A stretch of DNA of 32,000 nucleotides from Parasynechococcus marenigrum WH 8102 (GCF_000195975.1 NC_005070.1:1170001-1202000); one strand, 5' to 3'. Counted from the first letter of the stretch, positions 2,460-13,174 are shown. Notes: generated from the letters alone by a model not told the origin. Translations and numbers: made by a program.

Positions 2460-2616
2460 CTCAGAATGGGTTCCAGTGCCGATTGCCGCTAGCTCATCTC
2501 ATCTCTTCGAAAGGAACTGCTGCATCAAGACTTGGCTATGGCCTGCTCCTCCAGGAGCATATTTTTTGCTTATAACCCTGTTGCTGCAGGGGGTCTGAGG
2601 CTAAATGGTAATTAGT

Positions 2617-2636
2617 GTGCGCATAAAAGTGCGCAA
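2617..2636 (+). repeat. Left-end paired 8-mer module GTGCGCAT-AAAA-GTGCGCAA
   Basis: Read directly from the sequence. It has the same architecture and orientation as 12285-12304. Candidate protein-binding site (arm-type or operator). Confidence 0.6.
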
Positions 2637-3009
2637 AGGCTGAGTCCTGCCAAAGGGCGCTTTACCAAGGCCAGCACTGGGATGTCGGCTTTTTTCAAGC
2701 TTAGCCGGGAAAGCTTGATTATCAAATAAGGACCACCGAGGCGGTCCCTATCTGCTGCGCTGAGCCACCAGTCCACCGTAAAACTGGCTGTTTTCATAAT
2801 ACTCAAAACAGCTAAGCTGTAAGTATCTCAAATACGCGTTTTAGTGCCCAAACGTTAGCTACCTATTCAGGCTGACCTGATCATCAATCGTCTTCGTCTT
2901 GAAGCCAGCATTGAACGTCAGCGTGCAGTCTTTGAAATTGATGATGACGCACCACATGTGCCGTCCTACGACCCACTAGCAAATCCCCAAAGCCGTCGCA
3001 TAGCAACCC

Positions 3010-3420
3010 ATGTCAGCTGAATTTCAATCAATCGACGATCAGATCAAGGCGTCGTACCAATCTGCATCACAAGTCGAAACTCAGGCCCGTCAGCTTGAAG
3101 CCAGAATCGCCAAGATCGATGGTGCAAAGCGATACCTGCCATCACGTCGTTACGGTCAACCGATCGACATAGCAAAAATCAGGTCAAACCTGACACTTAC
3201 ATCGCTTATTGCACAAGATTCCGCAGAGCTAGCTCACTTTTGCGGTATCCACCCTGGCATTCGTCACCGTATGGACGAGGAGAAGGAGGCCAGAGCCCTT
3301 GCAGCGCAGGCCCTGCAGATGCGCACTGAAGCTCTCCGCCAGCAGAACCAGCAGCGTCAGCAGCAGGTGCAGCAACGTTCTCAACTCTCTCCGTGGCAAC
3401 GCGGTTACGGGAGCGTCTGA
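3010..3420 (+). CDS. Hypothetical protein, predicted coiled-coil with a Gln-rich C-terminus
   Basis: 136-aa ORF with ATG start. It contains an RQQNQQRQQQVQQRSQ tract. Its stop TGA (3418-3420) overlaps the next ATG (3420-3422). Confidence 0.55.
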   Translation: MSAEFQSIDDQIKASYQSASQVETQARQLEARIAKIDGAKRYLPSRRYGQPIDIAKIRSNLTLTSLIAQDSAELAHFCGIHPGIRHRMDEEKEARALAAQALQMRTEALRQQNQQRQQQVQQRSQLSPWQRGYGSV

Positions 3421-3773
3421 TGCTTGCTCGTCCTCATCCCGCCCTGGGCTGGCTGCACATCAGCCCCGCCGACACCAGACGTGTCATGGATCGTCTGCTC
3501 ACTGAACGTGATGCAGCTCTCGAAGTCGACCCAACCTTCAGTGGTGTGCCGCAGTCGTTCATCGACTGGACATGGCAAACATGGTTGCCATCACACCTGC
3601 ATCGCTACGAGCAGCAGGTGCAGGAACACCTCAGCTACCTCAACTTCAAGATCGCTGAGCTGAACGGTGATCTTGAAAAAGCTGCTGGCGGCATCCTCGA
3701 CAGCCGTGATGAAGCCGTTGATCTTCGTGATCGCTTGCAGCGTGAGCTTGATGCTCGGGAGCTGCCGTCATGA
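3420..3773 (+). CDS. Hypothetical protein, translationally coupled to the 3010-3420 gene
   Basis: Same frame as track ORF 3393-3773. The internal ATG at 3420 gives a TGATG stop/start overlap with the upstream gene. The C-terminus looks coiled-coil (LNFKIAELNGDLEKAAG...LRDRLQRELDAREL). Confidence 0.55.
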   Translation: MLARPHPALGWLHISPADTRRVMDRLLTERDAALEVDPTFSGVPQSFIDWTWQTWLPSHLHRYEQQVQEHLSYLNFKIAELNGDLEKAAGGILDSRDEAVDLRDRLQRELDARELPS

Positions 3774-3839
3774 CTCGCTCAGGCCTCTAACCAACGCAAT
3801 CGCCATGGATGCCCCTACTGCCAAGAAAAAACTGTTTCC

Positions 3840-4097
3840 ATGCCCGAAAACCAAGTGGCAGCAACGTATTCCAATCAGCAGCTACCGCCGATACAACCGC
3901 TACCCATGACCAACATCCTTGATCACGTCTCACCAACACCAGTCCTTGAAGTAGACGTCTGGCCACGCTCAGCAACGCGCAAGGAATGGTTCGCCATCAC
4001 CAGGCGCATCATTCAAGACACCATCGCTGATATGAACCTCGATCCTGCTGCTGAAGCAGAAGTGATCGAGGCCTTCAAAGGTGCAGGGCTGTTGTGA
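3840..4097 (+). CDS. Hypothetical small protein (start ambiguous: 3840 or 3906)
   Basis: 85-aa ORF. The in-frame ATG at 3906 forms an ATGA overlap with the stop of a 34-aa basic ORF (3805-3909, MDAPTAKKKLFPCPKTKWQQRIPISSYRRYNRYP). Two gene models are therefore possible. Confidence 0.4.
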   Translation: MPENQVAATYSNQQLPPIQPLPMTNILDHVSPTPVLEVDVWPRSATRKEWFAITRRIIQDTIADMNLDPAAEAEVIEAFKGAGLL

Positions 4098-4577
4098 ATG
4101 ATTGGGAGCTGACTAACTAATGGTCGTGCAGCTGCAGCTCAATCTCTCCATAGAAGAGAGCCTAGCGCCAACGATGGCCACGCACAGGGTGGTGGTGAGT
4201 AGCAGTTCATTGAGCATCTTTTCCTCGTTGTCTCTGTCCTTGGTCTATGACAAATAGTCAGCACTTGTAGCTCTTGTTACAAGCCTGAATGGAGTGAAAA
4301 CCAGCCAGCAAGAGCTGCAGGCTCAGTCACTAGGCACTGCAGCGGATTTCTAAGATATCTTGCAAACCAGCGAAAATCACCTGCCATCACTAATTACAGA
4401 AAGCCTGAAAAATGACCTGAAGCAACCAATTCAATTAGCTATACTGTTAACACCAGTTGCACGGGAGGAGTTGGGGGATGTTCAGCGCAAAGGGTATTAG
4501 GGTAACTTGATCATTCCTACCATCATTGACCTCCATAATTAGAGCATCACGTCCAAATCAAGAAATGCACTGAAATC

Positions 4578-5051
4578 ATGGAATACGTTGATTTTCTAAA
4601 TAGCAACGCCAGGATCGTTCACAATCAGGTAGTCAAGGCTGGGTATCAGATAATAGAGAACTCTCCCTATTGCCTTATGGCAAAACAGATATTGGCATTG
4701 CACAACGGAAGAGAAAAAAAGATTTATCTATGCACACAAAATCTCAAAAATATCTTGGTTTGGAGTGCTCCGACGGGTCCGAGAAATGTGTTCGCAAAGT
4801 CTAAAGTAAAACAAGCAAGATTTTATATGAGCAAGGCCCTTACACATGAAGCTGTTCATGCAGCCCAGTATTGCAATAATAATAACCTAATTGCCCCAGA
4901 AAGATCATCTTCTGTTGTTACCGATTTCAAAAAACAAGCTATACAGCTCTCCCTTGCTGTTGGAGGAACAAAACAAAGGGAGGAAGAGGCCTACCTACTA
5001 GAAACAAACCCAGCATTCGTTGTAGCGGCACTTAAGAGATTTTGTTTTTAA
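4578..5051 (+). CDS. Small putative zinc metallopeptidase (HExxH zincin), family unassigned
   Basis: 157-aa ORF with ATG start and very AT-rich codon usage. It contains ALTHEAVHAAQY, an HExxH motif followed by Q, reminiscent of SprT-like or DUF4157-like zincins. An acidic REEEAY segment downstream could supply a third ligand. Confidence 0.6.
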   Translation: MEYVDFLNSNARIVHNQVVKAGYQIIENSPYCLMAKQILALHNGREKKIYLCTQNLKNILVWSAPTGPRNVFAKSKVKQARFYMSKALTHEAVHAAQYCNNNNLIAPERSSSVVTDFKKQAIQLSLAVGGTKQREEEAYLLETNPAFVVAALKRFCF

Positions 5052-5458
5052 TTTTTGCAGCCCTAAGCATTAATTGTTAACCGCTCTTTTTTTGCATGCA
5101 TTTTAAATCATTATCCCAGCTCTTCCAGCAACGCATTACAGTGGAAGCTTCCGCCTCTAGCTACCTCAAAACTAAGTTTCTTACTGCAATGCCGTAAGGA
5201 ATGGCTTACAACGTGCTGCCATTAGTGAATAAGAGAATTTACACGAAACTCCTAAGTCGAAGCCTATACGACTACACCGCGAAATTAGCGCTAGTCCATG
5301 TTAGGTGCGAATAGAACATAAAAAGCCTTTCAGCCGATAATTTGCCGTCCTAGTAGTACACATAAACTATATGCAAGTACACTGGTAGTGCCATTTGTTG
5401 CATTGGATGCAGCTTATCAAGTTAAAATTTGTCATTATTTATTTTTATAAAAATGTAA

Positions 5459-5656
5459 GTGCTTCTTAAACTACTTGTTTCGTTGACGACTATTTCATTT
5501 TCAAACATTGTGCAATTGCAATTATTAGTTCCATCGATTTGCACGACTCATTACGGATACAAAGAGCCGCTTTCTGCGGATTGGATCAAGATCGGCGAGG
5601 AAACCGGTAAGGATGGAATCACTACGCCAATTTTTACCGTTTGCAAGCCAGCTTAA
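5459..5656 (+). CDS. Possible small secreted protein
   Basis: 65-aa ORF with GTG start and a hydrophobic N-terminus (LLKLLVSLTTISFSNIV). It sits in the AT-rich block, preceded by TTATAAAAAT. Weak support. Confidence 0.25.
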   Translation: MLLKLLVSLTTISFSNIVQLQLLVPSICTTHYGYKEPLSADWIKIGEETGKDGITTPIFTVCKPA

Positions 5657-5860
5657 TCAAATTGAGAATAGTGCTTGAAATTATATACTCAAATTTCTAA
5701 ATTAGAATTATTTACCATTGATCGTTCTTCACAATCGTCATCATTCCTTAACATCAAGTGAACTAATCAAAGAATTTGAGGGCATAGCCGCAAATTTGAT
5801 TGATTGTAATGATTTGCAAGCCTTTTGAACTATAGGCCCGATACTTGTATCATTTGCTTC

Positions 5861-6148
5861 TCAAATTTGATTGCAAACATCGGCGACAATCCTGGACTCG
5901 TAAATATTCACGGGAATCTGCCATTCTTTCCACTGACCTTCAGAACCTGTGGAATTAAAAAGCCTGTCTTGGCAATAAACACCAATAAAAATTCTCTGAT
6001 CTTTATTGTTCTTAGCAGGTATAACAACAGCAAAATCATTTTTGCGAGCATATTTGAAATCTAAGCGAAGGGGACCATACTTTCTTTCTTGTGCAATTGC
6101 ATTAGATGCAAGAGAAACGACGCATAAAAATCCGAGAAATCGTTTCAT
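5861..6148 (-). CDS. Small secreted protein, unknown function
   Basis: Internal ATG at 6148 of track ORF 5861-6232 gives MKRFLGFLCVVSLASNAIA|QERKYG..., a canonical signal peptide. The ATG overlaps the TGA of the upstream ORF (ATGA at 6145-6148). Confidence 0.55.
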   Translation of the reverse strand: MKRFLGFLCVVSLASNAIAQERKYGPLRLDFKYARKNDFAVVIPAKNNKDQRIFIGVYCQDRLFNSTGSEGQWKEWQIPVNIYESRIVADVCNQI

Positions 6149-6378
6149 ACATGAAAATAGTTGGGAGGCTGCATAATTTTTAGATTTTGCAGGCTCTGGC
6201 TGTAGGAGTTCAATGTTGCGAAAAGGGGCCATAATGGTGGCAAGCCTGCGGGTCTGAAGGAATAAATTCCTCTCTGTAAAGTAGCAGTCGATAAATGTCG
6301 ATATGTTGTTTTAGGTACCAACCCACTGTCAACAGAGCCCACTAATGTAACCATGCCAAGTACTCCTGGCGTATGCAA
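6145..6378 (-). CDS. Hypothetical protein, coupled to the downstream secreted-protein gene
   Basis: 77-aa ORF whose stop overlaps the ATG of the 5861-6148 gene (ATGA). No recognisable domain. Confidence 0.35.
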   Translation of the reverse strand: MHTPGVLGMVTLVGSVDSGLVPKTTYRHLSTATLQRGIYSFRPAGLPPLWPLFATLNSYSQSLQNLKIMQPPNYFHV

Positions 6379-6479
6379 ACATTTATCAGGAAATGTCTGG
6401 AACTCAACAAATAACTCTTAAATAAGTGACATTTGAGCAATAGTTTAGCCTAAATCAGCTTGTAACTAGTGACAGCGAC

Positions 6480-6659
6480 TTAATCCCACAAGACTCTCGG
6501 TTGGAACCTGCCATTACGGCGCTCATCAAGTATAGCTTCAGCAACATCAACTTCACAAGTAATGCTTTCCAGTGGGCAGGCCAAAGCGCGAAAAGGCCTA
6601 TGTGAGCCTTCAGCGATGAGGCTTCCAATTGATTGGGCGTTGGTGATGTGGATCGTCAT
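6480..6659 (-). CDS. Possible 59-aa protein (below the ORF-track cutoff)
   Basis: Manual translation gives MTIHITNAQSIGSLIAEGSHRPFRALACPLESITCEVDVAEAILDERRNGRFQPRVLWD. An AGGA lies about 12 nt upstream of the ATG. No family recognised. Confidence 0.3.
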   Translation of the reverse strand: MTIHITNAQSIGSLIAEGSHRPFRALACPLESITCEVDVAEAILDERRNGRFQPRVLWD

Positions 6660-6771
6660 TTGTTAAATCCTATTCTCTTAGGTCTAAACCTGCTCCGTCG
6701 GAGGTAGTCGTATCACATCTCACCAAACAAACGCCCAAGCCACACCAACGTCAACTGTGATTCTCCTCCAA

Positions 6772-7005
6772 TCACTTAGGTGATTTGAAGAAACCCTCAC
6801 TCCAAGCTGCGGTGGCCCGCAGAGGCTTGAGAAGCTCCGTCAGCGTGACAGTAGATACAGCACTCATTGATCGTCGCTCCACAAACTTGACGCGGCAAAA
6901 CGCCAAGCGATGATTGAACTTGCAGAGGCACCGAACGCGAGAAATGCGATCATCATCTGGGAAGTATTCACGGGTAACATAAGAGAATGCTTCCAAGCTA
7001 CTCAC
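6772..7005 (-). CDS. Hypothetical Cys-containing small protein
   Basis: 77-aa ORF with GTG start, divergent from the HTH gene at 7112. Weak support. Confidence 0.3.
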   Translation of the reverse strand: MSSLEAFSYVTREYFPDDDRISRVRCLCKFNHRLAFCRVKFVERRSMSAVSTVTLTELLKPLRATAAWSEGFFKSPK

Positions 7006-7111
7006 TAACGACTAACGCTGTTGTTACCAATTTGCAGCAGCAACAACTGGTCACGTAATACGCGCGTCATCTCAGCAATGCCGCTGACCCAATAAATCGC
7101 CGCTGATCACC

Positions 7112-7495
7112 ATGGCAAGGACTACCGCGAAAGAACGTTTAGCCCGAAGGGAACATGCGTTGGCGTTGCTTGCTGACGGCAACAGCTTTAGAACAGTTGC
7201 GGCGCTTGTGTCGGGAAAGTACGGGGTGTCTGAGAAGACTGCTCAACGGGACTTGACTTGGGCGAGAAACAGACTGGTAGGAGAACTGAGTTCGACGGAA
7301 GTCAAAGAGCTGTTGGCATGGTTCTGCCATAGAACTCAGACCATCGTTCAGAAAGCCGAGAAAGCAGGTGCTTACGGTGCTGCTGTTGCTGGCATGAACC
7401 TGATTTACCAAGCGGTGCTGTCGCGCGAGCTGGACAGTATTCACAGCAATCGGCATCGGGGATACGGCAACCGACACGGGAACTACAAGGGTTAA
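7112..7495 (+). CDS. Small helix-turn-helix DNA-binding protein (regulator, or possibly small-terminase-like)
   Basis: 127-aa ORF with ATG start. The N-terminus KERLARREHALALLADGNSFRTVAALVSGKYGVSEKTAQRDLTWARNRL has an HTH-like pattern. It ends 8 nt before the TTGCGCAC pair at 7503-7521. Confidence 0.6.
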   Translation: MARTTAKERLARREHALALLADGNSFRTVAALVSGKYGVSEKTAQRDLTWARNRLVGELSSTEVKELLAWFCHRTQTIVQKAEKAGAYGAAVAGMNLIYQAVLSRELDSIHSNRHRGYGNRHGNYKG

Positions 7496-7502
7496 GGCCG
7501 AG

Positions 7503-7521
7503 TTGCGCACTATTTGCGCAC
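7503..7521 (+). repeat. Paired 8-mer TTGCGCAC-TAT-TTGCGCAC
   Basis: Two exact copies with 11-bp phasing, in the intergenic region between the HTH gene and the 3' end of the helicase gene. Confidence 0.6.
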
Positions 7522-7640
7522 AATGATGCCCTTGATATCAGGTATACCAGCCAGCAAGGTCTATCTCGGCTCCTGACATGCTCCTGATGTGGGAGATCAG
7601 GCATGGATTCTCCTTTCAAGGTCGTTGTCTCTGAGTTGGC

Positions 7641-7667
7641 TTTCAACCCTTTCAACCCTTTCAACCC
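7641..7667 (+). repeat. Three perfect tandem 9-mers TTTCAACCC (iteron-like)
   Basis: Copies at 7641-7649, 7650-7658 and 7659-7667. An inverted 10-bp copy (GGTTGAAAGG, 7769-7778) lies about 100 bp away, and a degenerate TTTCAAGGT at 7614-7622 is in 9-bp phase. The repeats sit immediately 3' of the primase-helicase genes. Confidence 0.65.
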
Positions 7668-7743
7668 AGTGCTGTTCATCCCAAAAAGAAGAGGTTCAGC
7701 AGTTGGCTATGCAATAGGAAAGGGTCGAAACCCTAGAAAGGCG

Positions 7744-9060
7744 TCAGGCACACCTCCTGCTTTTTAGCGGTTGAAAGGAAACCACCTTTCCGCGCTTGTG
7801 GTCTGAACGGGTGAGCTTCTCCACCAACCTTTTGTTGGCCAAAGCATCCAGCGCCTGCAGAGCCTTCTGACGGGCGTTGTCCCCCAGCTCTTCAGCCATT
7901 GCCTTGGCAACCTCAGCTGGCTCCATGGCCCGGCTAGTGAGCATCCAGTGCTCTTCCACCAACGACAGCACTTCACTGTGCCGTTCGGTGAGTTTTGCCC
8001 TGACTTTGCTTAGGTCCAGCTGTTCGCTGATGGTGTTGCTGTCGCCGTGGCAGGACCAAATGGCACGGTCAACCTGTTCAATCACGCAGTCCACCGACTT
8101 GCTGCTGCGCCCCTCTGTGGTGAGCCGCACCCAATTGTCTTCTTTAGCGTCGGGGTTGAGCCAATGCAGGTTCACCACATGACTCGCCATTCGGCTGAGC
8201 CCCCTTCCTGCTGATGCGTTGGAGGCACGTTCATGTGCCCGTGATTTGGAACTGTGGTGCAGCAACACCGTGGTGATGTTGAACGGCGCGATGCTCTCCA
8301 GCAGGTTCTGAAGAGGCTGGACAGCAGCGTCACTGTCGGAGTCCAGACCAAGCGGTCCAATCAGCGACAGAAAGGCATCTAGTACCAGCACTGCCCAGGG
8401 GTTTTGTTCGCAGTCAGCGGTGATTTTCTCAATGCCTGCCTCATCAAGATGCAGCCCGTGTTCACGGGTGTAGAGCCGCACAACGGGATCACACACCCTG
8501 TAGTTGTCCAGGTCGGTGCGAATCATCAACCCGTTGGGCACCATCACCTCACGCCAATCAGCCAAGGGTTGATCGGTGCCAACGATGATCACCTTTGGGC
8601 ATGGTGGAGCCAGGCTGAAGCGTTCAAGGAACTCACCTCTGCCCTTGGCCAGTTCGCCAAGGATGTTGCACACCACAGCCGACTTGCCGACCTTTTGAAG
8701 GGCAACCACCAGCGTCAGGGTCCGCGCTGCAATGAGGTCCTGAGCTAGCCAACGCTCCTCTGGAATCTTGAACACGTCATCTGGGCTGATGCCCTCTGAC
8801 TCCCCGCGCAGGTTGGCGCGAGCCGTTGCCACCACAGCCGCCAGATCCTTGCCGGTGAGGCTCAGCCCTAATTCACCAGCCTGTGCCCGCAGCAGGATGT
8901 TTCGCTCATGCCACGGGGTCTTGGCGACTAGGTGGTGCTCCGCCGCATCGTGCAGTTGAGCCAACGCATCAACCCTGTCGCTAAGGGCTTTGGCCTCTGG
9001 TCGTTTTGATGGATCAGCGGCCTCAACCTGATCAACGATTGCGTGTAGTTCAGCGTGCAT
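7744..9060 (-). CDS. RecA-fold replicative ATPase/helicase (AAA_25 / RepA-like) with a C-terminal winged-helix-like domain
   Basis: Walker A ALQKVGKS, Walker B AVLVLDAF, and a TVLLHHSSKS segment typical of AAA_25 proteins. The track start at 9144 is a TTG. The ATG at 9060 overlaps the primase gene end by 11 nt, so it is preferred. Confidence 0.85.
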   Translation of the reverse strand: MHAELHAIVDQVEAADPSKRPEAKALSDRVDALAQLHDAAEHHLVAKTPWHERNILLRAQAGELGLSLTGKDLAAVVATARANLRGESEGISPDDVFKIPEERWLAQDLIAARTLTLVVALQKVGKSAVVCNILGELAKGRGEFLERFSLAPPCPKVIIVGTDQPLADWREVMVPNGLMIRTDLDNYRVCDPVVRLYTREHGLHLDEAGIEKITADCEQNPWAVLVLDAFLSLIGPLGLDSDSDAAVQPLQNLLESIAPFNITTVLLHHSSKSRAHERASNASAGRGLSRMASHVVNLHWLNPDAKEDNWVRLTTEGRSSKSVDCVIEQVDRAIWSCHGDSNTISEQLDLSKVRAKLTERHSEVLSLVEEHWMLTSRAMEPAEVAKAMAEELGDNARQKALQALDALANKRLVEKLTRSDHKRGKVVSFQPLKSRRCA

Positions 9061-9964
9061 AGCGGCTCCATCCGTGTTGCTTGGCGTGGAAAAACAACGT
9101 TCCTGCACCGATCTGTTCGCCACCAGAACGGTCAACTTGCACAACGTCCCAACCGCATGAATGGCTAGGGCTGTGAGCCTCCATCAGGTCAATGGCTACC
9201 TGTTCATCGACGTCAATGTCTCGGCAGGCCGCCATCAAGCCCCACAAGATGTCGCGGTAGTCGGCATAGGTGCCTGAACCTTCAACACGCTGTGGGATTG
9301 CTTCCAGTGCGTTGACGATTTCCCGCAGTGGCAGTGAGTTGTGCCGACCGCTGGTAAACCGCTTCCTGGCAGCAGGTTGCGGCTTTGGCACCGGCAACTG
9401 TGGCAGCACTGCATCCAGCTCTTCAGCTGAATAACGCGGGCCGTCCGCACTGATGATTTGAACCTGACCCTGGGATTCACCACTTCGGTTGATGTAGTGG
9501 CTCCCTGCCATCCGCATCATGCGGTTTTTGCCTTTACGGGAGCGATCACACCCTTCAGCTGCGATGTGCAGCCTTTCCATCAGCACGGTCCAGAGCGCCG
9601 GTTCAATGGGGCTCTTCAACCCCAGATATTGGTGGATGCTCTTGCCTTGTGTGTCGATCTGGAAGGTTGGCTCCAGACCAAGGAGTGATTCGCACAATCC
9701 AACCTGTTTAGACCGTGGTCGGTCATCGTGTTCAAAGAACAAGGTGCTGCAAAGGCTGATGTCCTTTGCTTTGGTGCCGCCGATGTTGGGCTGCAGGTAA
9801 ATCCCGTAGCCCTGGTTGTTCAGATCCTGGAAATGTTCCAGGTCCATGGCGAAGTTGCCATTGATGGCTCCACCGGCTTTGCCTTTGTATGGGATGGCAC
9901 GGATGTGGACATCACGTTCATCCCTGCCAAGCAGGTCCAGATGCCAATGGGGCTTGGGCTGCAT
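9050..9964 (-). CDS. Archaeo-eukaryotic-type primase-polymerase (Prim-Pol) with a PriCT-2-like C-terminal domain
   Basis: AEP-like motifs: LFFEHDD (acidic motif I), KSIHQY (motif II His) and MRMAGSHYINR (motif III). The C-terminal YADYRDILWGLMAA is PriCT-like. ATG at 9964 (the track start at 9967 is TTG). Confidence 0.8.
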   Translation of the reverse strand: MQPKPHWHLDLLGRDERDVHIRAIPYKGKAGGAINGNFAMDLEHFQDLNNQGYGIYLQPNIGGTKAKDISLCSTLFFEHDDRPRSKQVGLCESLLGLEPTFQIDTQGKSIHQYLGLKSPIEPALWTVLMERLHIAAEGCDRSRKGKNRMMRMAGSHYINRSGESQGQVQIISADGPRYSAEELDAVLPQLPVPKPQPAARKRFTSGRHNSLPLREIVNALEAIPQRVEGSGTYADYRDILWGLMAACRDIDVDEQVAIDLMEAHSPSHSCGWDVVQVDRSGGEQIGAGTLFFHAKQHGWSRYAR

Positions 9965-9974
9965 CAATGATCAG

Positions 9975-9994
9975 TTGCGCACCACCTTGCGCAC
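9975..9994 (+). repeat. Paired 8-mer TTGCGCAC-CACC-TTGCGCAC directly upstream of the primase start
   Basis: Two exact copies with 12-bp phasing. In the gene orientation it reads GTGCGCAAggtgGTGCGCAActgatcattgATG. Confidence 0.6.
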
Positions 9995-10134
9995 TGACGC
10001 CCCGGGAGGCGTAACTTGCTTCAGTAGTGCCAGTGCATTTGGATGCAGCAACCTGCTGCTTGTATAGCAGTTTGGGGCTTAGCCTTGAGGTATCACGGGC
10101 CTCATGGCTGCTCAATTTTTGGGCAGTCATTTTT

Positions 10135-10353
10135 TTATACCTCGCGGTCTGCTTGTTTCTTGAACCGGCGGTAATCCCGCATGTGGTGCTCAAAAGAGTC
10201 CTGCCACATCTCTCTGTTGTCTTGGCTGCGGTGCTGTTCCTGTGCCCGTTCGGCGCACACTGATGCGTGACGCGCAGACTGCAGCATTTTTTCCTGCGCG
10301 GTTAACTTGAACGGCACTTTCTTGCCGTTGTCATCAAAGGTTTGGCGCTGCAT
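10135..10353 (-). CDS. Hypothetical 72-aa charged protein
   Basis: The ATG overlaps the stop of the upstream Xis-like ORF (TGATG at 10353). No domain recognised. Confidence 0.5.
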   Translation of the reverse strand: MQRQTFDDNGKKVPFKLTAQEKMLQSARHASVCAERAQEQHRSQDNREMWQDSFEHHMRDYRRFKKQADREV

Positions 10354-10598
10354 CAGACCAACTCCTTAATCAGTTGTTCTGCCTGCCGACGAAGCTGACC
10401 GCGTCGGCTCAGCAGCTCCTGAATTGCTGCAACTTCCCAGCGAATCGGGCTTTTAGGAGTTGGCCCCGAAAACCAGTGCTCACCTTCGATTAAGGGACCA
10501 CCTTGAGAGTCCTTTAGTCGTTGGAGATGGCCCTGCGACAGGCAGAGCATGGGGGCTGCAGCTGATGTCTTGAACAGCTGCCGAATACTATCTGGCAT
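10353..10598 (-). CDS. Excisionase/AlpA-like small DNA-binding protein (putative)
   Basis: The track ORF starts at TTG 10652, but the first ATG is at 10598. MPDSIRQLFKTSAAAPMLCLSQGHLQRLKDSQGGPLIEGEHWF...IRWEVAAIQELL follows the pattern of MerR-type excisionase HTH proteins. It sits between the integrase and the replication genes. Confidence 0.45.
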   Translation of the reverse strand: MPDSIRQLFKTSAAAPMLCLSQGHLQRLKDSQGGPLIEGEHWFSGPTPKSPIRWEVAAIQELLSRRGQLRRQAEQLIKELV

Positions 10599-10911
10599 GG
10601 AAATAGGCGCACGAAGGTAACGTGCAGCGCCCCCTTGTCTCGTCCGGAGCAACTGCGACCCGTTCCAGAGCCTTCGTGTTTGGGCAGTACCCCTAACCGT
10701 CGCCTAGCCGGTTAGTGCTTTGTTCCTTTGCAGGATTCCGACCGTCACATGATGCTGTGATCGCTGGCAAGCCAGAAATGTCGGGGCCGAACTCAGAGAA
10801 TTCCTTCGTGGGCAGGGTGAAGAGTTTCGCTTACCAGCACGGTGAAGTTCAAATGAACATCACGTTCATAATGTAACCACATCCATTCGGTTCTGCGCAA
10901 CCCTGATGTAT

Positions 10912-12267
10912 TTACATCTCTGAATTGACCCGTTCAACCTCTGCTTTGAGGCTGGCGGCGTCAATCCAACGGCCATACCAACGTTGATGCGTCACCAAAT
11001 CGTGGCCCATCAACTTTGCTGCAGCACGGTGCGACATCTTCGTGTCTCCGTAGTTTGCGCGCCATGCAAATCCGTGCCGCAAACTATATGGCGTGATGTC
11101 TTCCGTTCCAGGGTTGGATTTCAAATTTTTCCATGCTCTGCATCTAACGCAGAGCATTTGCCGGAACTCCACCCCGACGTAACTGAATGAATCAATGTGG
11201 TTCGGATGGTCAGGCTTCATCCTGTCAATTTGAACCTGCAGTGCCGCTGGTAGTTTCGCCTTGCCTCCAAAAAACTGCTGCAGGACTTTGGCACCTTCAC
11301 GATTGCGCCCTTTGATTTCCAGGGGAAAGATGTCCCTGGCCTCAGGCGGATGCTTCATCTGTTTTGTGTTCCGCTTGGTGCTGACAACCCTTGCCTGACC
11401 ATCAACCTGGTGCAGGGTTGCAAGTTCGCTTGGACGGATGCCGCAATATCCAACAATCGCCACGGCAACATATTCACGGACCCTGCCCTCTTCCAGCAGG
11501 TCATCCAATAGTTCAACGAACATATCTGGCTTGATTGCCGGAGTGAGTGCATGTGTTGTTGAAACTGTCTTAAACCCCACCAGCTCTTCAATCTGCTTTC
11601 TGTCCGGCGGTAGATACCTTTTCGGCATCCCGCAAACATCAACGGCGAATTTTAAAAATCTGCCGATGTCGTCCAGGCTCTTTTTGCGACCGGATGCACC
11701 TGCCTCAATCTGAGCGCCTGGTTTGTGCTCCTCACCATTAGGGCCAAGGAAGTGGACTTCCTTATATGCCTGCATCAACCCCAGACCAGTCCTGGGCTTT
11801 GGTTTGTGGTGGTTCAGTAGAGCCATGGCCCGCTCCAGCCTGTAGTCGTAGTCCCGCAGGGTTTTCCAGCGGCAGCTTGATTTCGACTTGAGGAATTTTT
11901 CCAAGACGGCATCCCAGCCTTTGTTCGTCGTCAGGCCATGGCCGGACTGAGCTTCCGCTTGCTCATCAAGGGTGTCGGCGTTGATCTTGGCAACTTCGTT
12001 CAGTTCTTTTTGAGGATCAGCCTGAAGCGCCTTGGCTATGGCGATGACCTTGTTGAGGATCTGGCGCTTGCTGGATGCCTCCCAAGGGAACGGCAGCATC
12101 ACGCTGCTGCGACGACCGTCTTCAGTCCTGTGAGTCAGCTTGCAGGAGCCAGACAAGTTGCCGTCGCTGCGCTTATGGCCGCAGACGTTCCAGCCCAAGC
12201 CGATTTCGGTCTTGATGTCTTGCCGCAGGCTCTTGGCCCACTCCTCACCAGACCGAAGCTTTGGCAT
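10912..12267 (-). CDS. int: Tyrosine recombinase / phage-type integrase
   Basis: The C-terminal catalytic domain has GIRPSELATL (Arg I), TPYSLRHGFAW (box with H-x-x-R) and LMGHDLVTHQRWYGRW (His and nucleophile Tyr). It also has a long N-terminal domain. Confidence 0.9.
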   Translation of the reverse strand: MPKLRSGEEWAKSLRQDIKTEIGLGWNVCGHKRSDGNLSGSCKLTHRTEDGRRSSVMLPFPWEASSKRQILNKVIAIAKALQADPQKELNEVAKINADTLDEQAEAQSGHGLTTNKGWDAVLEKFLKSKSSCRWKTLRDYDYRLERAMALLNHHKPKPRTGLGLMQAYKEVHFLGPNGEEHKPGAQIEAGASGRKKSLDDIGRFLKFAVDVCGMPKRYLPPDRKQIEELVGFKTVSTTHALTPAIKPDMFVELLDDLLEEGRVREYVAVAIVGYCGIRPSELATLHQVDGQARVVSTKRNTKQMKHPPEARDIFPLEIKGRNREGAKVLQQFFGGKAKLPAALQVQIDRMKPDHPNHIDSFSYVGVEFRQMLCVRCRAWKNLKSNPGTEDITPYSLRHGFAWRANYGDTKMSHRAAAKLMGHDLVTHQRWYGRWIDAASLKAEVERVNSEM

Positions 12268-12284
12268 CTCCTGGGTGCTGCCCT

Positions 12285-12304
12285 GTGCGCATTAGTGTGC
12301 GCAA
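12285..12304 (+). repeat. Right-end paired 8-mer module GTGCGCAT-TAGT-GTGCGCAA
   Basis: Read directly from the sequence. It lies 18 nt upstream of the integrase start codon on the opposite strand. A further exact GTGCGCAA is at 12341-12348. Confidence 0.6.
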
Positions 12305-12412
12305 AAACATGGATACAAGCAACCACAAGTGATCACATTTGTGCGCAACCTCGCCGGTCAATGCAGCGCAGATCAAAGGCTGGGCCTGTGTTTATGAGGA
12401 TTCTCAGGCGAC

Positions 12413-13174
12413 TTATGAGTTTTTCAGCGACTGCTCCTCCAGCAGCATGTTGAATTGCAGGAGCTGTTCGTCGGTAAGTTGCTGACGGCTGCTGGCCTGC
12501 AGATGCTCCTGCAGAAAGCCTCGAGCCTGCTCTGCCTTCCAGCCCAGCTGTTTGAGCATTTGATCGCCCTGTGTGATCAGATCACTGCGGCGAATCGGAA
12601 TGTGGGCTTGATCCGGCTGCTCCTGGGGCTGCAATTGCCGTAGCTGGCGCAGGTAGGCCACCAGATCTGCATAGCGGGTCAACCGATGGCGACTGGCATG
12701 GCCGAAGGCCCGTTCGAGGTAAACCCGTTCCTGATCTCGCCCCCAGCCAATGCGCTTCAGCTCCAGATCGATGGCGGTGAGTTCTTCGCTCCAGTCCTCC
12801 GGATCTGTCGGTGTTTCTGATGGTGGATCCGATGGGGGAGCGATCAGTTGCGGTGTCTCTGCTGCAGGCGGCTGATCCACCGCGACCGGCTTCGCCATTG
12901 CCCTCGGTTGTTTGATCGGTGCCGGTTGAGAACGGGATTCCGCCACCCGAGTCTGAGGAGGCGTTGGCTCTGGCTTTGGTTCGGGGGCGACCTGCGGCTT
13001 GGCATCAACCCCCGCAAGCTTCTCTTGCAAGCGCCGCCGGGCGCGCTCTTCTGCGTCTTCCGCATTGGCAGCTTCGCCCAGGCAGCTGGCGATGCAGCGC
13101 TCACCATTCCAGGCCTCGACGCGCACGATGCAGCGCAGGGTGTCGACGTGACACAACTCGGCTCGTACCTGCAT
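12413..13174 (-). CDS. Conserved hypothetical protein with a Pro-rich linker and two internally repeated C-terminal segments
   Basis: 253-aa ORF with ATG start and core-like GC. It has an internal duplication (RIGWGRDQERVYLERAFGHASRHRLT versus QLGWKAEQARGFLQEHLQASSRQQLT). Confidence 0.7.
   Translation of the reverse strand: MQVRAELCHVDTLRCIVRVEAWNGERCIASCLGEAANAEDAEERARRRLQEKLAGVDAKPQVAPEPKPEPTPPQTRVAESRSQPAPIKQPRAMAKPVAVDQPPAAETPQLIAPPSDPPSETPTDPEDWSEELTAIDLELKRIGWGRDQERVYLERAFGHASRHRLTRYADLVAYLRQLRQLQPQEQPDQAHIPIRRSDLITQGDQMLKQLGWKAEQARGFLQEHLQASSRQQLTDEQLLQFNMLLEEQSLKNS

Follow-up and report, generated by a model that had tools for sequence, protein, structure and literature searches.

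A tycheposon-like integrative island of marine Synechococcus inserted in the 3′ end of an slr1353-family protein gene

Introduction

Tycheposons, which are defined by their integration at one of seven tRNA or tmRNA genes with a partial tRNA copy at the flank, have been put forward as the principal source of genomic islands in marine picocyanobacteria (Hackl et al., bioRxiv 10.1101/2020.12.28.424599). The same preprint reports that their int, xis and primase/helicase genes are co-induced by mitomycin C, and tycheposon-like insertions at tRNA-Phe have also been described in marine Synechococcus (Grebert et al. 2022, PMC8995045). Here we describe an island of 9,888 bp in a 32,000-nucleotide stretch of Parasynechococcus marenigrum WH 8102 (GCF_000195975.1, NC_005070.1:1170001-1202000), hereafter called the window; positions are counted from its first letter, and handles beginning with L denote the loci and contigs compared with it. 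The island resembles tycheposons in its site-specific tyrosine integrase, excisionase-like gene, 2-4-kb primase/helicase module and exchangeable cargo, in lacking recognizable capsid or conjugation genes, and in being polymorphic among close strains, with tandem or circular junctions and apparently decayed remnants at the same site. It differs from them in its target, which is the 3′ end of an slr1353-family protein gene and not a tRNA or tmRNA, and in its host, a 61%-GC coastal marine Synechococcus.

Phage-inducible chromosomal islands (PICIs) and Staphylococcus aureus pathogenicity islands (SaPIs) are similar in size (~10 kb), likewise carry int at one end and have a primase/helicase module followed by short repeats, and in Gram-negative PICIs a small helix-turn-helix (HTH) gene, alpA, follows int, as in this island. 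Phage 21, which integrates at icd, is a familiar case of insertion into the final codons of a conserved gene that is kept intact by a substitute tail. Salmonella genomic island 1 (SGI1) does so at the 3′ end of trmE (PMC8409611). The island described here shares this mode of insertion with phage 21 and SGI1 but differs from both in its unrelated integrase family and its cargo, and its nearest integrase relatives still use tRNA genes.

Results

The extent of the island follows from genomes that lack it. In seven contigs (L106, L107, L109-L113), drawn from five other projects or assemblies, TerC, the slr1353-family gene, ~160 nt, the DUF2808 gene and mfd stand in succession without the island, and the empty attachment site (attB) reads TTCAAC-ATGCTGCTGGAGGAGCAG-GCCATAGCC in all seven. 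The flanks are 98-99.6% identical to the window in the three contigs aligned in full (L106, L107 and L113). L106 matches the window at 99.6% identity down to 12431 and at 98.2% from 2560 on, and since the two alignments overlap by exactly the 18-nt core, the inserted DNA measures 9,888 bp and the empty site lies within the same species. The island is real and bounded by an 18-nt direct repeat.

A preliminary description of the window, made from the sequence alone, had proposed a self-contained integrative and replicative element and had suggested searching for its empty site and for an end-to-end junction. Both exist, the first in the same species and the second in 88-95% identical relatives, which bears out the proposal. 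The ends given there, 2611 and 12304, are contradicted by the empty-site alignments, and the junction does not fall at these coordinates. The 17-bp repeat taken to mark those ends (2611-2627 and 12291-12307) was considered as an att sequence and rejected: it lies inside both arms, is not collinear with the gene-tail repeat and forms part of the GTGCGCA pairs treated below. The suggestion of a non-tRNA site next to a conserved gene was correct as to the absence of a tRNA but not as to the position, because the core lies within the last codons of the gene itself.

The att site is thus inside the 3′ end of the slr1353-family coding sequence (Table 1), which stands in a TerC-slr1353-DUF2808-mfd order that is syntenic in relatives. 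The right copy of the core encodes the residues NMLLEEQ, after which the gene now terminates in an element-supplied SLKNS-stop; its own original tail, AIAKS-stop, was left behind and reads together with the core as NMLLEEQAIAKS followed by a stop. The core is quasi-palindromic over its 18 bp (ATGCTSCTGGAGGAGCAG, where S is C or G), and in its attP form it also allows a reading as a perfect palindrome of 16 bp, TGCTCCTGGAGGAGCA. At one position the core has a C in attP and attL and a G in attB and attR, a segregation that places strand exchange to the right of this position, within CTGGAGGAGCAG.

We found the exact integrase in 53 sample blocks of public data, on contigs of up to 446 kb and always in the same integrated position; the places shown for it are estuary metagenome assemblies (KIEF18-1, PRJNA320136) or unlabelled Logan assemblies. 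The exact DUF2808 protein is present in 595 sample blocks of the public collection. Relatives with an 88-90% identical integrase occupy this same site in three contigs, one from GOS and two from TARA (L049-L051). In six contigs from other samples (L043-L048, integrase 90% identical), P′ arm, core, P arm and int follow one another in an attP-type junction; L049 and L050 are 94-95% identical to these contigs, and the homology begins exactly at the core. Such a junction belongs either to a circle or to a tandem array, and recombination at the core is required either way. All four att forms were recovered: attL and attR in the window, attB in the same species and the attP-type in relatives. A literature search by accession number for the origin of the attP-bearing samples returned nothing.

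Several further observations concern the same loci. In Synechococcus sp. MU1642 (L012, positions 10724 and 12192), a second slr1353 gene tail, consisting of the core and KLLLLEEQQMKAAS with a stop, follows the gene at a distance of 1.47 kb downstream. The backbone proteins of the element went undetected at this locus, which looks like a decayed element or leftover cargo at the same att site. The attP-form relative L043 contains an exact 55-bp direct repeat inside its primase gene (2948-3002 and 3103-3157), and L044-L046 appear without the ~100 nt that separate the two copies. Across the Synechococcus and Cyanobium loci L001-L039, the slr1353-mfd interval ranges from ~0.1 to 4.9 kb, making it a small variable region even without the island, and the DUF2808 protein of the window is matched in that interval in just one of the 39 loci, L001 (tblastn, E<=1e-5). 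A 5-nt microsatellite (GAGAT/ATCTC) in the slr1353-DUF2808 spacer, at ~2490-2507 in the window and ~5860-5900 in L106-L113, has one to five copies, two of them in the window, among conspecific contigs that are otherwise 98-99.6% identical.

Table 1. Coordinates of the island and its flanks in the window, followed by the corresponding sites in related loci; int identities refer to the integrase of the window.
Feature	Location	Strand	Remarks
Left flank	1902-2378/2459		DUF2808 gene; mfd running off the left window edge
Displaced original 3′ tail of slr1353-family gene (AIAKS-stop)	2525-2542	-	Identical to the tail in conspecific empty sites L106-L113
attL core	2543-2560		CTGCTCCTCCAGGAGCAT on the + strand, attP-type C allele; direct repeat with 12431-12448; exact overlap of empty-site alignments
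P′ arm	2561-2667		GTGCGCA pair at 2617-2635; joined to core and P arm in attP contigs L043-L048
GTGCGCA pair, P′ arm	2617/2629
Cargo genes, 136, 117 and 85 aa	3010-3420, 3420-3773, 3840-4097	+	Called in source contigs
Low-GC (~38-45%) variable cassette	4099-7100		GC profile
o157	4578-5051	+	HEAVH motif
123-aa protein	5861-6232	-	N-terminus secretion-signal-like by eye
o127	7112-7495	+	Conserved, predicted all-helical, HTH-like N-terminus
GTGCGCA pair, backbone/cargo boundary	7504/7515 (7504-7521)	-	Just past helicase and 9-nt repeats
Candidate origin iterons	7640-7667		Three perfect copies of CTTTCAACC; TRF, 100% matches
RepA-like AAA_25 replicative helicase, 438 aa	7744-9060	-	PF13481
AEP primase-polymerase, 304 aa	9050-9964	-	Match to PDB 6ZP9
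GTGCGCA pair, primase	9976/9988 (9976-9994)	-	12 nt upstream of primase start
72-aa open reading frame	10135-10353	-	Called in source contigs; start overlaps the stop of the HTH gene
Putative excisionase-type HTH protein	10353-10598/10652	-	81 aa from ATG (99 aa from longer start)
Tyrosine integrase, 451 aa	10912-12267	-	Predicted N-terminal arm-binding domain
P arm	12268-12430		GTGCGCA pair 12285-12303, single copy 12341-12347, element-supplied gene tail SLKNS-stop 12413-12430
GTGCGCA pair, P arm	12285/12297		18-40 nt ahead of int start codon; lone extra copy at 12341
attR core	12431-12448		attB-type G allele; direct repeat and empty-site alignment
Target gene, slr1353-family, 253 aa	12413-13174	-	NF058667, E = 2.8e-49; intact thanks to the element's tail
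Right flank	12413-13174, then TerC		slr1353-family gene (the target gene), followed by TerC
3′ half of tRNA-Arg(TCT) beside P arm	L040, L041, L052, L060		int 50-52% identical
3′ half of tRNA-Ala(GGC) beside P arm	L053, L055-L057, L059		int 42-45% identical
3′ half of tRNA-Ala(GGC) beside P arm	L061, L090, L091		int 39-44% identical
Complete tRNA-Ala(GGC) directly upstream of int	L064		int 35% identical
tRNA-Arg(TCT) half beside P arm	L079		int 27% identical
Motif variant TTGCGCATC	L055, L057, L074
Motif variant TTGGCGCAC	L058, L059, L080
Motif variant CGTGCGCA	L053, L077
Motif variant TTTAGAGCAA	L100, L102

The integrase family to which the element belongs is distinct and mid-sized, and ordinary integrases do not score against it: a word-indexed search returned 21 clusters, and an exhaustive profile search over 1.84 billion representatives returned 115 at E<=1e-30 and 1077 at E<=1e-3. 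Relatives of the integrase are carried by 39 metagenome loci. More than ten metagenome contigs share the backbone of int, HTH gene, primase and helicase, with o127 on the opposite strand; structural genes are never present in them, and this compact arrangement spans integrase clades that are 33-90% identical. Modules are shuffled within it, as in L043, where the same integrase is combined with a DUF3987 helicase, and in L055 and L074, where a 43-44% identical integrase accompanies a 78-87% identical helicase.

Many of these relatives abut tRNA-Arg(TCT) or tRNA-Ala(GGC) (Table 1), which are two of the seven integration tRNAs listed for tycheposons (Hackl et al., bioRxiv 10.1101/2020.12.28.424599); the comparison with tycheposons made in the preliminary description gains from this. 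As every other clade examined targets a tRNA, tRNA targeting would most simply be ancestral and the slr1353 site derived. In an alignment anchored on the P arm, the gene core GCTGC-TGGAGGA-GCAG falls on the columns of the tRNA-Arg(TCT) anticodon stem-loop, ACTGC-TTAGAAG-GCAGT, and the two share stem bases and a 4-5-bp inverted repeat around 7 nt. This likeness to an anticodon stem-loop may plausibly have provided the route for a switch of target.

Three of the tRNA-associated loci show a particular arrangement, in which a P′ pair of one motif variant, a tRNA-Ala(GGC) half, a P pair of another variant and int succeed each other (L057, 149-470; L091, ~130-520, from the GORG single-amplified genome GCA_902527915.1; L056, ~650-1000), which suggests that two different elements lie in tandem at a single tRNA. 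Distant integrase relatives also occur on contigs of 26-35% GC (L083, L084, L086 and L087), values compatible with Prochlorococcus-type hosts, so that the family would span low- and high-GC picocyanobacteria.

Within the island, the minus-strand order is int, a 259-nt gap, the small HTH gene, a 72-aa open reading frame (ORF), the primase, the helicase and then three 9-nt tandem repeats. ORF calls and TRF agree here with the preliminary gene order, in which the second gene had been called Xis-like, and of its gene assignments that of the helicase was confirmed outright and those of integrase and primase by other routes than Pfam.

The integrase scores 25.7 bits against PF00589, below the Pfam cut-off of 27.1, but matches the phrog_1 integrase of PHROGs at E = 6e-10, and its catalytic residues and fold agree with the call. 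R278, K298, R397, H422 and Y431 are invariant in 17 sequences of the integrase family, with Y394 preceding R397 where His is usual. In an AlphaFold2 model (pLDDT, the predicted local confidence, 83) we see an N-domain at 1-95 (helix, three-stranded sheet, helix), a disordered linker, a core-binding domain and a catalytic domain. The best Foldseek matches in the Protein Data Bank (PDB) are XerA, full-length lambda Int (430-460 alignment columns) and Tn1549 Int, at E = 7.5e-6 to 5e-4. The model thus points to a lambda-Int-like tyrosine recombinase, in which, as in heterobivalent integrases of the lambda type, an N-terminal sheet-plus-helix domain, linker, and core-binding and catalytic domains align with full-length lambda Int.

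Of the 38 metagenome contigs tabulated, 26 have a homologue of the small HTH protein directly after int. PF12728 (HTH_17) is matched by three of 16 aligned members of its family (best E = 1.3e-7), and the family profile finds the excisionase RdfS weakly in the PDB (8DGL, E = 0.18) among mostly spurious repeat proteins. By transitive homology the protein would belong to the HTH_17 family, and it is a putative excisionase. The 72-aa ORF after it has no family match.

The replication module comprises two genes. No match to the Pfam Prim-Pol and PriCT models was obtained for the primase at E<=0.1, but the structure of the archaeo-eukaryotic primase (AEP) domain of the PrimPol of cyanophage S-2L (PDB 6ZP9) is matched at E = 2.5e-17, with 35% identity to S-2L PrimPol over 96% of the query and the motifs FFEHDD, GKSIHQY and RMMRMAGS aligned with FGEWDD, GKSIHHY and RVMRLAGC. 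What forms the N-terminal part of the 737-aa S-2L protein (S2L_32) stands alone in the primase of the element; the helicase has a gene of its own, an unrelated one of the AAA_25 type, and its start and the primase stop overlap by 11 nt. The helicase matches PF13481 (E = 1.4e-13, 51.4 bits against a cut-off of 27) and phrog_30286 (E = 8e-58), and is 27-29% identical to the helicases of the cyanosiphoviruses S-CBS1 and S-CBS3, the S-CBS3 gene being annotated as the hexameric replicative helicase RepA. The repeats past the helicase gene are candidate origin iterons, and L052 and L053 have 9-nt tandem repeats of their own (two copies of CTGGGTGAA) ~110 nt past their helicase genes. A promoter and terminator scan gave nothing over the shuffle expectation except a hairpin directly after the helicase stop.

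Four pairs of GTGCGCA, with a spacing of 11-12 nt, mark the two arms, the primase start and the edge of the replication module (Table 1). Nine of the 11 GTGCGCA copies in the window fall in the island, and among 3000 first-order Markov resamplings of the window 2994 contained no such pair, six contained one and none contained two or more. Equivalent pairs, each with its own motif variant, stand upstream of the primase in L051, L055, L058, L059, L074 and L080; GGCGCAC and TGCGCATC are among the variants of the motif. Integrase-side and primase-side motifs agree within each element and differ between related elements. In L058, the end of o127 is identical to that of the window, and the adjacent motif switches to GTGCGCCAA, which is L058's own integrase-side motif; in L100 and L102 the P′ pair changes along with the att type, while the neighbouring cargo stays 96-97% identical. 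The possibility that the pairs are sites of the primase or helicase was rejected, as L055 and L074 carry a different motif despite 67-69% identical primases and 78-87% identical helicases. Because the motif tracks the att/int module and not the primase/helicase type, the protein that binds the pairs would most likely be encoded by the integrase module, either the N-domain of Int or the HTH protein, and the sites near int and the primase suggest that one protein may regulate both genes.

Like lambda, the element has repeated sites in both arms at lambda-like distances from the core. In KplE1 the arm sites overlap the int promoter, and the island likewise has a pair just upstream of the int start codon. 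What classical attP sites lack is the recurrence of this phased pair at distances of 2.3 and 4.8 kb, once by the primase start and once by the edge of the replication module. For KplE1, autoregulation involving IntS and TorI has been reported (Panis et al. 2010, PMC2951348). Phased motif pairs are not mentioned in the preprint's passages on tycheposons, which does not prove their absence (Hackl et al.).

The region from ~2668 to 7500 appears to be exchangeable cargo. In L100 (1-182) and L102 (1-160), from the same estuary project as the window's element, the cargo of window 2668-4199 (96-97% identical) sits on a tRNA-Val(TAC)-like fragment with a TTTAGAGCAA pair; this fragment and a different arm take the place of the sequence to the left of window 2668. 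On this comparison, identical cargo rides on elements of different target in one habitat. L101 is 98.8% identical up to 4098 and diverges beyond, which identifies the low-GC block as a variable cassette. Searches of Pfam, PHROGs, NCBIfam and PADLOC gave no family match for the 136-, 117- and 85-aa cargo proteins; L067 and L078 contain relatives of the 85-aa one. In the source assemblies no gene was called at 4258-7111 (2.85 kb, 38-45% GC), and the cassette DNA has no match in 50,697 phage records. However, o157 has 21 homologous clusters, 18 of them of 157-158 aa at 57-96% identity, and this conservation indicates a real gene; its sole phage match is a weak one, at 25% identity, to an ORF of Synechococcus phage DSL-LC02. 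Homologues of o127 stand at the same position in L040, L053, L058 and L080, and the homologues found for it are all close ones, with 37 clusters in metagenomes. Its AlphaFold2 model (pLDDT 54) was too poor for a structure search.

The GC profile of the window falls from a chromosomal background of ~61% to 38-55% between roughly 1500 and 12300. Neither ARAGORN nor Rfam at gathering thresholds detected a tRNA, tmRNA or other RNA family in the whole 32 kb, and no capsid, packaging, conjugation or defence gene was matched among the element's proteins (Pfam, PHROGs, NCBIfam, PADLOC), PADLOC returning no defence match on the ten proteins submitted; the lack of a tRNA or tmRNA and of capsid and packaging genes had been noticed in the preliminary description. 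NCBIfam named the host slr1353 gene only.

Discussion

We consider it probable that the island is an integrative, self-replicating element of the tycheposon type that has been retargeted to a protein gene. Autonomous replication is indicated by the PrimPol and the AAA_25 helicase; cargo appears to be swapped between different att modules, with no capsid or conjugation gene matched; and the population evidence for excision on which tycheposons rest, namely junctions and empty sites, is present, the junction coming from 88-95% identical relatives and not from the exact variant of the window. We file the island as a variant that works like a tycheposon and not as a proven member, because it does not sit at a tRNA and its integrase is only a candidate for the published clade.

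The kinship of the replication proteins with cyanosiphovirus ones (S-2L PrimPol and the S-CBS1/S-CBS3 helicases) raises two other readings. One is a PICI/SaPI-like phage satellite that a helper cyanophage induces and that replicates and is packaged in helper capsids, in line with the satellite layout invoked in the preliminary description. Size and layout, with int, an HTH gene and a primase/helicase module with repeats, do resemble Gram-negative PICIs; o127, small, conserved and helical with its HTH-like N-terminus, is a conceivable small terminase subunit; and PICI-like tycheposons are reported to share modules with the cargo-carrying type (Hackl et al., bioRxiv 10.1101/2020.12.28.424599). 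However, terS, capsid, portal and interference genes were not found in Pfam, PHROGs or NCBIfam searches, nor were the packaging and capsid-remodelling genes or the Stl-type repressor of PICIs and SaPIs, and no helper phage is known. Searches of 2.9 million IMG/VR viral contigs found no relatives of int, primase, helicase or o127, and beside int there is no divergently transcribed repressor; the gene that follows int is co-directional and putatively of the HTH_17 family. We therefore think a satellite unlikely, and the satellite reading of the preliminary description is not borne out. The second reading, a defective prophage derived from a cyanosiphovirus similar to S-CBS or S-2L by loss of the structural genes, strikes us as barely credible: identity to the phage proteins is just 27-35%, the ends of the attP junction enclose only 9.9 kb, and the recurrence of the same compact backbone without structural genes across integrase clades 33-90% identical speaks for a stable design and not for random decay.

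It could also be argued that the copy in the window is fixed and immobile, a domesticated or decaying remnant of a past integration, given that every contig with the exact integrase has the same integrated arrangement and that Synechococcus MU1642 offers a decayed example at the same site. Yet the backbone ORFs are intact, the catalytic residues conserved, and both arms and all motif pairs preserved; the single difference between the two cores is at the position where attP x attB recombination is expected to leave one; and presence of the island varies within a species with 98-99.6% identical flanks, while 88-95% identical relatives occur in the attP form. We regard such a fixed copy as very improbable, although less so than a defective prophage.

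The reading as a retargeted tycheposon-type element also has points against it. The attP-type contigs are not closed circles, and a tandem array would yield the same junction; for the sequence variant of the window itself, neither an attP nor a circular form turned up, all long exact-integrase contigs being integrated. The tRNA association that defines tycheposons is missing, with no tRNA or tmRNA in the window and the core in an slr1353-family gene, and membership of the integrase in the monophyletic tycheposon clade is putative, its tRNA-abutting relatives being 27-52% identical. The IMG/VR search gave no sign of particle packaging. The window's own copy of the HTH protein matches no profile, and its excisionase role, the origin function of the 9-nt repeats and protein binding to the GTGCGCA pairs are functions that we infer from sequence.

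We observed the integrated form, the conspecific empty site and the end-to-end junction in 88-95% identical relatives. Under the mechanism we propose, the integrase recombines the 18-bp core of the element with its counterpart of identical sequence at the end of the coding region of the host's slr1353-family gene, and the element brings five replacement codons and a stop, keeping the host gene full length. Excision would be aided by the small HTH_17-type protein encoded beside int, and the excised circle would be copied by its own PrimPol and RepA-like helicase, probably from the 9-nt repeats just past the helicase gene. The GTGCGCA pairs, one helical turn apart, may be bound by the arm-binding domain of Int or by the HTH protein, and could both build the recombination complex and couple expression of int and the replication genes. 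As no capsid or conjugation genes are present, transfer from cell to cell would have to rely on vesicles, helper phage or free DNA. That retargeting through mimicry of an anticodon at a gene end and a single integrase-module specificity, acting on phased pairs to couple excision to replication throughout the family, hold jointly is a tentative proposal, about which we are more doubtful than confident.

Other mobile elements are well known to insert at the 3′ end of a protein gene and to bring a replacement tail with them, and the surprise here is moderate and specific to the field. What the locus offers is a complete sequence-level case of a protein-gene-targeting relative of tycheposons, with attB, attL, attR, an attP-type junction, empty and occupied genomes of one species and an apparently decayed remnant in another strain. 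Public estuary metagenomes contain enough of the element for read mapping to measure its activity. The motif pairs, co-varying as they do within elements, provide a testable handle on the link between excision and replication and, if our reading of them is true, would explain through cis-regulation why tycheposon integrase, excisionase and primase/helicase genes are reportedly co-induced. Moreover, the quasi-palindromic core, with its likeness to an anticodon stem-loop, suggests how the switch of target happened, and if elements of this family can switch targets, genomic islands could be seeded away from tRNAs.

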